DNA of 64,000 bases from Callorhinchus milii. Lineage: Eukaryota. This document shows, one piece after another, positions 18,244-21,200 of the stretch. Below the pieces are notes generated by a model. That model was not told where the DNA came from and did not search any database. It worked only from the letters and a program-made list of their open reading frames with translations. The translations under genes and the position numbers were made by a program. The stretch lies in the NCBI RefSeq assembly GCF_018977255.1, contig NW_024704751.1, forward strand, positions 13,144,001-13,208,000, given 5' to 3'. The first letter of the stretch is position 1, and the number at the start of each line of letters is the position of its first letter.

Positions 18244-21200
18244 TCAGTCCTCCTGATGAGTGTCAGACTTGTAGCCACTCAGTGATCGGGATTTGGATCT
18301 GGACCGGGATCTTGAATGGGTGAGCGACCTGGATTGTGACCTTGCCTTGGAATCCTTTCTAGTTGCCGACTTTGATCGGGACACAGACTTGGATTTGGAC
18401 CTGGATCCTGACCTAGAACGTGACCGGGATCTGGACCTAGATCTTGACTTGGATCTGGTGTAGGAACGAGTGTGGCGTTTATGCCTAGAAATAATTAAAA
18501 AGAAAAATGAGACCATTAAATGCAATGTATACCAACAAGCTTTAAACCAACTTACACTCGTGAAGCACCTTCCAGAATGAACATCTTGAAGCACTTTGGA
18601 TGGAATGGTGAGCAAGCAAAGAAATCAAGAGATTTAAAGAAGTTGATGGAACTTCTATCAAAGGCATGATAGACGAGGTACTCTTAAGAAGGGAAAGAGG
18701 GAGCAAGGCAAGTAGTTTTGGAAAGCATTCCAGAGGACAAGAGCATAGTTGATAAAGGCCCCACCAATGGAATGAAGGGAGTGTGGAGCACGCAACAGAC
18801 CAGCCTGAAGGGCAGGTGGTACACTGGAAATTATTGCGTAGGTAGGATGGGCCAAGGTCATAATGGGATTCAAAACACCTTCAGCTAAAACACCAGTGTC
18901 AAGCAGCTGCTAGTACCAATGTTAACTGGTAAGGTTTCTATCCAAAAGATCTCCAAGCTATTCAATTCTGACCAAAGTATGCTAGTGAAAACAAGATGAA
19001 ATTGACACCAACTGCAACTTTACTATTGATGAAAACTCTCAGTACAAAGACGTGTATAGCATTCGCTCCTGAATGCCTTGACACGCGATCACTAAGGTAC
19101 TCTACACTACGTTACCTCTCGTTGAAAGAATTGCTTCGGCTGCGTCTGCGCTTTCCAGTCGATCTGCTTCGTGAACTGGAGGAGAAACAAACAAGGTAAA
19201 CCCAGAGTTCTATTAAATTTAGCACAAGGCACAACGCATTTGGCAAACAGCTCCTTACTTTTTAGGGCTATCAGATCTCCGGTGAGTACGTTCATATGAA
19301 CGGCTTCTTGACCGTTTCCTTTCGTAACTGCGACTTCTGGACCTCCTCCGTCGATCATATTCGTCATAGCGGTCATACCGAGGTGAACTTCGTGATGATC
19401 TTAATTCCTTTGATTTCATCTGACCAGGAGCTTTAATTACAAAGAGAACAAAATAGCTAATACTATTCAAGAACCCAAACCAAGCATTTACAAAGTTTTA
19501 AACCTTTAAATATGGCAAAGACCGAAGCTAGGCATGAACAGGTTTCCAGATATGCACTAAAACACAATGAATACACAAATCATTACCTTTCTACTGAAAC
19601 TGAACATAAGACCGAAAATAACTGTCTAGTGGTGATCATTTGATTGCCACAGATTGCTGAACTACGCTAACCTATTTGTTAGGTAAGGATATTAAGGGAT
19701 ATAGGGCAAAGCCGGGTAATTGGTGTTGAGGTATAGATCAGCCATAATCTTACAGAATGGTGGAAAAGGCTCAAGGGGTTGAATGTTCCATGCTTGAGAT
19801 AATAATAATAATCCTTGCATTTGATAAAGCTTCATCACGTCTTCTAGAAGTCTCAAAGTGCTTCAATTTGTAAACAATACTTGCAAAACAGAAATTATTT
19901 AAATTTATGAATGTATTAAAAGATTGAACTTACTTTTTCGATCGCCTTGGGCGAACTGGATCTCGATTTGGCGGCCACACACCCACTTCCTATCCAGATT
20001 GTGGAGTGCATCTTCGGCATCCCGAACGTCTTCAAACATGCTAAGCTGTTAAGGGGTCTTTGCACTTTCACAGGTTTCGAACAAATCCTACAACCTTCAA
20101 TACACATTTTTCAGCCGTAACATATTGCTTTGCCAGAACTTAGCTGTATTAATTAATCTGTACAGAGTACTTTTTTTTTCTATTCTTTGTTCCCATTCAT
20201 TGGCAAATTAGGTTTAGTAAAAATGCTGCAAACAAATGTAAACATGCAATACAGTGGATTCCTGTTAATGTCACATTGCCAGATTTAATTAAGCACAAAG
20301 GGTTTCACTCCTGTAAGATGTATTCTTTCACTGAGAGAAAAACAGTCAAGGTATGTGCAATTGTATTAGTTAAGAGGGAAAATGAAAAGCCTGGCTTTGG
20401 GGCAAATGCTCACCAGTTATTCCCAAGTGGATACATTAACATGCACAGCTAAAAAATGTTTTTTCTCTAGTTCACTCATTTCAAATTTGGAATCAGTCAA
20501 ATCTTTCCTTCAAATTTTCAACACGGATATATAAAATCCAAACTAGAATTGCAGTGAAGAAAAAAACAATAATGATCTACTCCAACAAAAGTGTCCCCTC
20601 CCCATCACCACATAAAATTATTCACGTAAAGAATGGGATGGAAGTTTATTCCCATTCATTGGCAAATCAGTAACGTTGTGTAGTGAAATGCAGAGCATTC
20701 TTGTTAATGTAATTTTTGCAAACAAACTTGTTAAGTATCAAGCGTTTCACTCTCGTAGTAAAGATTCTTCCTCAGAGAGAGAAAAAATAACACTCGAGGT
20801 GTGCGCAACACTAAGCCAGTAACACAGGGAAAGATGAAAGAAAGGCTTGGTCATTGGCAAGCACCTGCCAACACCACCTTAGTATTAATAACATGCAAAT
20901 ACTCATACCATTGAGGTCTGAATAAAGACAACAAGATAAGTACCTAGAAGTGTAATTTTGTGGTGACTGAGGCGACTGATTTCGGAGGAGGTATGAAACT
21001 TGCTGAAAGTAAACAAAATGAACTCGAAATTTGTAAGCTACGGGAATTAAAATTTACCTGGGGCAGTTTCAGAAAGTTACATGGATTGTTTGGGGGGGGG
21101 GGTGGGGGGGGGGGGGGGAAGAAGTGACAATGAAAAGCAACAAGTAGAATCCACTGCACTTTTAAAGAATCCTAACCCTCCTAAAATAGGACAGCTATAA

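Follow-up and report, generated by a model that had tools for sequence, protein, structure and literature searches.

The window, that is, the whole stretch of 64,000 nucleotides that was analysed, carries on its minus strand a gene in which two exons match RRM_1 (Pfam), the second one below the Pfam cut-off. We take this gene to be SRSF10 from its protein and from a layout like that of mouse Srsf10; SRSF12 would be the alternative name. An SRSF10-type gene with a U12 intron had already been proposed in the preliminary description, and the RRM_1 exons, the donor, the branch box and the layout agree with it. A search for paralogues with the RRM exon found one other gene, presumably SRSF2-like. 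The features of the host gene around a repeated element present in two copies (A and B) are:

20038..24452, minus strand: U12-type intron of the SRSF10-type gene, with the donor ATATCCTTT and the branch box CCCCTTAAC near 20055; junction predicted from the sequence
20095..21512, minus strand: nested GT-AG intron with both copies inside; a 55-nt contig of run X2 joins its two sides
21513..21852, minus strand: GA-rich alternative (poison) exon; donor taken from an RNA junction, acceptor predicted
20944..21002, minus strand: candidate cassette exon immediately 5' of copy A, with a CAG or AAG acceptor and a GT donor at 20943

The U12 intron appears to end AT-AT and not AT-AC, because the reading frame requires AT at the 3' end, and the letters at this end are identical in runs X2 and X9. 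Introns of the U12 type with AT-AT ends are rare, but they have been catalogued (PMC1557818). Runs X2 and X9 carry spliced exon junctions. The contigs of both runs cross the U12 acceptor uninterrupted, and none of the aligned contigs spans the productive U12 junction. The X2 contig joins the donor of the GA-rich exon at 21512 to the AG at 20096-20095, and both copies therefore also lie inside the nested GT-AG intron. The acceptor of this intron borders a 5'-extended form of the next exon, which starts at 20094, 57 nt upstream of the U12 acceptor. The poison exon is likely the equivalent of Srsf10 exon 3: in the mouse gene the U12 donor closes the RRM exon, and a GA-rich alternative exon lies within the minor intron (PMC7244321). 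When the poison exon is spliced onward in this way, the coding exon is preceded by an in-frame stop and, after it, an ATG; a product without most of the RRM is therefore conceivable.

Several other details of this gene were noticed. In another organism (organism C), the first AG of the tandem CAG/AAG of the cassette exon is gone and the second is kept, and the alignment ends exactly at the GT donor at 20943. At about 21058 (minus strand) a long pyrimidine run is followed by CCCCAG|GTAAAT, which looks like a recursive splice site. Intron 1 contains, at about 24897 and 24787 (minus strand), two short repeats of the form GAATGCAA..GGCACTGTAT, separated by about 110 nt and without an Rfam match.

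The repeated element consists of the following parts:

20645-20897 (part bounds 20644..20899, about 256 nt), minus strand: copy A, upstream in the transcript
20186-20445 (part bounds 20185..20447, about 263 nt), minus strand: copy B, downstream
20448..20643, minus strand: unique spacer between the copies, with a single match in the genome

The preliminary description had reported two colinear copies about 460 bp apart. We found the same pair with an offset of 439-459 nt and a local alignment score of 127, compared to 29.6 +/- 4.6 (maximum 59) in 1000 dinucleotide shuffles. Over the aligned columns the copies are 72-76% identical (171/239 to 178/235), and the alignments contain 12-17 gaps. All the motifs quoted earlier are present, including CCTTGAC...CAG at 20351-20331 in copy B. 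The spacer resembles neither the flank upstream of A nor the flank downstream of B (P 0.37 and 0.29, 500 shuffles each). We rejected a tandem duplication of the whole unit, since the flanks are unrelated. An origin from protein-coding sequence was also rejected, as six-frame translations have no lasting common frame.

The claim that the pair belongs to no repeat family elsewhere in the window held as well: the next-best place scores only 49. When A, B and the spacer were searched as DNA against the 992-Mb vertebrate genome, each matched nothing but itself, at a sensitivity that diverged relatives of about 72% identity may escape, since query B did not retrieve A. A match to a transposon, which had been named as a finding that would speak against the element, and dispersed SINE-like copies were not found at this sensitivity. 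In a motif search the 18-nt 3' block gave two exact matches, which are A and B, and seven matches with one mismatch, none of which extends into a full copy. A two-copy profile search of the extracted loci found no additional copy. The copies had not been recognised as a known family, and the Rfam scan, run at the gathering and E-value thresholds, gave weak chance-level matches only. Other near-tandem pairs in the approximately 104 kb scanned looked by eye like mobile elements, tRNA-like sequences or simple repeats; a unique tandem pair is therefore not commonplace. The element is a real, old duplicate with sharp edges, confined to a single locus at the sensitivity searched.

In a separate part of the window, at 36646-37991 (plus strand), lies a recent tandem duplication, 91-99% identical, with two tRNA-like matches at 37022 and 37606. 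A metagenome scan gave 17 loci, none of which looked vertebrate, and the element was absent from the seven of the 17 searched with the two-copy model. Two loci, L028:4615-5876 and L029:4776-6008 (approximate), retain the U12 intron; they are apparent invertebrate-animal contigs with the same intron (AT-AC) and the same RRM exons. Within the intron of L029, repeats of the AAG(A/T)TTCAAG type are abundant in a stretch that looks like an exon, which may point to a very old autoregulatory exon.

The conservation between the copies had been described as patchy. Compared with neutral simulations of the same identity and gap content (224 of 6000 were kept), it is at most marginally so. There are 7 identical runs of at least 6 nt when 7.4 are expected neutrally (P 0.66 for the count), and the summed length of the identical blocks is ordinary (P 0.29). 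Only the longest run, at 19 nt, is unusual (P 0.036, and 0.02-0.05 when the simulation was repeated). The test of transition/transversion saturation gave P from 0.05 to 0.68 depending on the setting.

The comparison between species concerns copy A only and relies on one DNA contig of organism C (run X18), among four runs compared. This contig is the orthologue of copy A; it covers 20574-20766 and is anchored by the spacer and the upstream sequence. Differences within about 30 nt of the ends of the pieces are not listed. The 3' part of copy A has 14 listed substitutions in 87 nt (16%), with 4 insertions at or within the copy, compared to 4 substitutions in 41 nt of the spacer and 7 in 47 nt of the upstream intron. 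The 5' 176 nt of copy A correspond to 177 letters in organism C, which are unaligned at the 80% setting. Compared with organism C, copy A changes at about the rate of the surrounding intron. The distal block, previously called invariant, differs at 3 of its 18 positions. Cross-species conservation, to which the preliminary description had looked for a decision, is thus partly lacking, and this applies to copy A. In organisms B and C neither copy B nor the neighbouring coding exon was covered, so the absence of copy B there carries no weight. Divergence between A and B is about 25-28% with many indels, compared to about 16% between A and organism C, and the duplication therefore probably predates the split from organism C. 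Matches of 34-39 nt in runs X14 and X18 have unrelated flanks and were treated as chance. The cover of run X9 has a gap at 20495-20694, to which we gave no weight.

With B as the outgroup, 10-11 of the 14 differences between A and organism C fall on the branch of organism C and 1-2 on that of A (P 0.008-0.044 in a neutral simulation with the same aligner, 979 kept of 5000). Because of this asymmetry copy A looks conserved in its own lineage, unless gene conversion or a faster lineage of organism C is responsible. Any one of three causes would explain it: selection on A in its own lineage, gene conversion with B, or faster change in the lineage of organism C.

The next question is whether the copies share a structure. 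The consensus fold of A and B has an SCI of 0.22, while the neutral null is 0.26 +/- 0.08 (P 0.66, 200 simulations). Scoring with ribosum inflated the values, but the result was still null (P about 0.5). Copy A folds somewhat better than its shuffles (z from -1.74 to -2.2) and copy B worse (z from +0.91 to +0.97). Copy A has two hairpins of its own, at 20880-20842 and 20801-20748. The 5' block had been expected to pair locally or with the distal block. Local pairing is predicted in A (mean probability 0.69) and fails in B (0.016); pairing with the distal block has a probability of 0.00 in both copies. Selection on a shared structure, which the preliminary description had proposed, is thus not shown: the consensus fold does not differ from that of unselected pairs, shuffled versions of B fold better than B itself, and the copies have no guide pocket in common.

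As a yardstick we used SNORA53, a 250-nt H/ACA RNA; the same genome has a cluster of three copies of it on a different contig (L047/L048, G000:C5:25450956-25455524). Two of these copies are intact and one has no ACA box; a fourth, weaker match lies elsewhere. For the two intact paralogues the SCI is 0.91 and the 3' hairpins reach -21 kcal/mol. In the copy without ACA the GC content is 0.38, z is 0.0 and the hairpin has -7.6 kcal/mol. Copy B, with a GC content of 0.37 and a 3' hairpin of -7.6 kcal/mol, fits this decayed profile. Copy A (GC 0.39, 3' hairpin -5.7) resembles it in GC and hairpin but not in z (-2.2). Compared to the intact yardstick, A and B have no stable hairpin-hinge-hairpin fold in common.

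It had also been suggested that the copies encode a sno/scaRNA-like RNA. What supports this is an H/ACA-like outline, that is, an H-box match and a terminal ACA/AUA followed by 3 nt; no shared structure was found, and no guide pocket common to both copies among the eight RNAs compared. The elements of the outline are:

20704-20699, minus strand: H-box match ACAAGA of copy A, 55 nt upstream of its AUA box
20649-20647, minus strand: AUA box of copy A, overlapping an AATAAA
20265-20260, minus strand: H-box match ACAGGA of copy B, 75 nt upstream of its ACA box
20190-20188, minus strand: ACA box of copy B, which ends 90 nt before the nested U2 acceptor

On this outline one or both copies would give a live, non-canonical H/ACA RNA with a long branched 5' domain, an H box, a short 3' hairpin and an ACA/AUA tail, processed out of the nested intron. 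Protection of both ends would give one SLERT-like product about 715 nt long. The RNA would be an orphan or would guide an snRNA other than those compared here. We consider a live RNA unlikely, although the edges argue for it: the homology ends at ACA-AAG in B and at ATA-AAC in A, i.e. at A[C/T]A plus 2-3 nt (the mature ends are predicted); the frequency of such triplets in the intron is 0.035 per nt. AUA is an accepted variant of ACA (PMC8763049, PMC4914119). The H-box match ACA(A/G)GA is found in A, B and organism C, where the H-box match and the AUA box of copy A are unchanged; it differs from the form AgAnnA that PMC8763049 gives. A lower stem CATTT/RAATG and an upper stem CAR/TTG, the latter with its base 14-15 nt from the box, can be drawn by eye in each of A, B and organism C. 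The distance from the end of copy B to the acceptor and the asymmetry between the lineages also favour an RNA, and snoRNA paralogues usually arise by intragenic duplication (PMC2653536).

Against a live RNA, the hairpin drawn by eye is unstable in A (+1.1 kcal/mol), and in the best fold of B the pocket of this hairpin is closed by pairing. The strands of the pocket are not the same in A, B and organism C. Matches to the H box are common: of the 155 A[C/T]A sites of this intron, 94 have an ANANNA 50-85 nt upstream. There was no pocket common to both copies against the 18S, 5.8S, 28S, U2, U11, U12, U4atac and U6atac RNAs of the same organism, and antisense stretches to rRNA reach 10-11 nt, none of them common to both. 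The lack of a common fold, the poor comparison with SNORA53 and the absence of an Rfam match point the same way. Therefore, with an unstable 3' hairpin in A, common H-box matches and no common pocket, we describe an outline only and do not file the copies as H/ACA RNA. Other RNA classes fit no better. Neither copy has a C-like box of a C/D snoRNA, composite scaRNA or klRNA, and CTGA occurs in A only, internally. SNORA53 (RF00563) has no family match in the window, and local scores of the copies against it are 18-25. A hammerhead ribozyme was rejected: A has CTGAGGA and GAAA but no stem I/II by inspection, B is without CTGA, and there is no Rfam match.

The copies could also act on splicing in cis. 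Two features of copy B are relevant:

20372..20391, minus strand: pyrimidine block of copy B, predicted to form an 18-bp helix with GA-rich sequence of the poison exon at about 21725-21742
20331..20351, minus strand: branch/acceptor look-alike, CCTTGAC followed by a pyrimidine tract and CAG, in copy B only

The pyrimidine block would pair with the GA-rich enhancer of the poison exon, and the decoy branch/acceptor and U11 complements nearby would tune the choice between major and minor splicing. No other helix predicted for the intron is as good as this one, which includes 4 G-U pairs (P 0.013-0.02; the exon was shuffled 150 times for each of 3 block sizes), and its block ranks first among 798 windows. 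Moreover, GAAACCCTTT in B is complementary to nucleotides 3-12 of the U11 RNA of the same organism (10 nt). In mouse, autoregulation of Srsf10 is driven by the GA-rich enhancer of exon 3 (PMC7244321). Nevertheless, we consider a cis-acting element quite unlikely. The helix test was picked after the fact among about ten tests, and the counterpart block of A does no better than shuffles (P 0.74). The decoy U12 branch and acceptor noted earlier are indeed present in B, but they are lost in A and no RNA contig uses them. A USSE consists of tandem U11 sites; here the branch, the acceptor and the U11 site are all in B only. A loose branch pattern fits 14 places on the minus strand in 13 kb, and the whole reading accounts for about 20 of the 260 common nucleotides. 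In a mouse minigene autoregulation was retained when the sequence 3' of exon 3 was replaced (PMC7244321).

The segment may instead have arisen by duplication of an alternative last exon, composed of a branch, a pyrimidine tract, an AG, some 150 nt and an AATAAA, or of a DNA enhancer. This is very unlikely in our view. An acceptor is present in B and an AATAAA in A, which organism C retains, and exon 3 of mouse Srsf10 has an alternative polyadenylation site and mostly ends by polyadenylation (PMC7244321). However, neither copy has both signals (A has a GAG acceptor and B has AACAAA), and the X2 contig is continuous across both copies.

Our preferred explanation, to which we give about an even chance, is that A and B are an old local duplicate of a 260-base (approximately) intron segment that drifts at about the intron rate and makes no stable RNA. 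The absence of a detectable common fold, together with copy A changing about as fast as the intron, points to a decaying old duplicate rather than a working RNA. One old local duplication would have given both copies, and both may now drift about as fast as the surrounding intron without a stable RNA product. The segment was perhaps once an H/ACA-type RNA gene, with paralogues that have since decayed; such an origin would explain why the flanks are unrelated and why the 3' edge coincides with the ACA/AUA box. Chance could account for the 19 nt of uninterrupted identity, as could a short gene conversion or some weak remaining constraint. The two copies would leave with the excised intron or persist in RNA that retains it. 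Counting against drift are the unrelated flanks while the cores keep about 72% identity, as in snoRNA paralogues, the branch asymmetry, the 19-nt run and the boxes kept in organism C.

If the old-duplicate explanation holds, this is an ordinary intragenic duplicate of little consequence, and its lesson would be that "patchy conservation" between two copies and pairings that tolerate G-U arise without selection. If the copies do encode an RNA, they would represent an H/ACA-like family absent from Rfam, inside the intron through which SR-protein levels are connected with the minor spliceosome (PMC7244321). They would then offer a direct test of feedback by an intron-encoded RNA on the minor-versus-major splice choice. 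It is very unlikely that the locus represents an undescribed vertebrate H/ACA-type family whose two paralogues, or a single RNA of 715 nt with one of them as a cap at each end, come out of the major-class intron within the SRSF10 minor intron when the poison isoform is spliced, with copy B pairing with the poison-exon enhancer and so coupling the major/minor switch to the intron RNA.

We found no literature on an intron-encoded RNA in SRSF10. The term "srsf10" is absent from one supplement file each of PMC6984369 and PMC11880993, where host genes may carry other identifiers, and the available part of the preprint 10.64898/2026.08.03.742641 does not mention SRSF10. Among known systems, A and B resemble SNORA53 (RF00563) as described in PMC8763049: about 250 nt, intronic, in clustered copies with unrelated flanks, an extended 5' domain and a terminal ACA/AUA. 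They differ from it in that there is no sequence similarity, the SNORA53 locus is on another contig, and A and B have neither the SCI nor the strong hairpins of its intact copies. H/ACA sno-lncRNAs of the SLERT type likewise have two H/ACA-like units in one intron (PMC11028025), but A and B are only H/ACA-like and their processed ends are predicted. As intron elements near the poison exon of an RNA-processing gene, the copies are also like the intronic structures of the SF3B3 poison exon (PMC11162794) and the cis-acting snoRNAs SNORD86 and SNORD2 (PMC11028025). Those are conserved across species and tested, whereas A and B have no common fold and the pairing occurs in one copy only. A parallel in layout is the autoregulation of mouse Srsf10 through exon 3, for which the available part of PMC7244321 describes no element downstream of the exon. 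The gene layout is the same, and here an RNA contig shows the poison exon spliced onward via a GT-AG intron that contains both copies.
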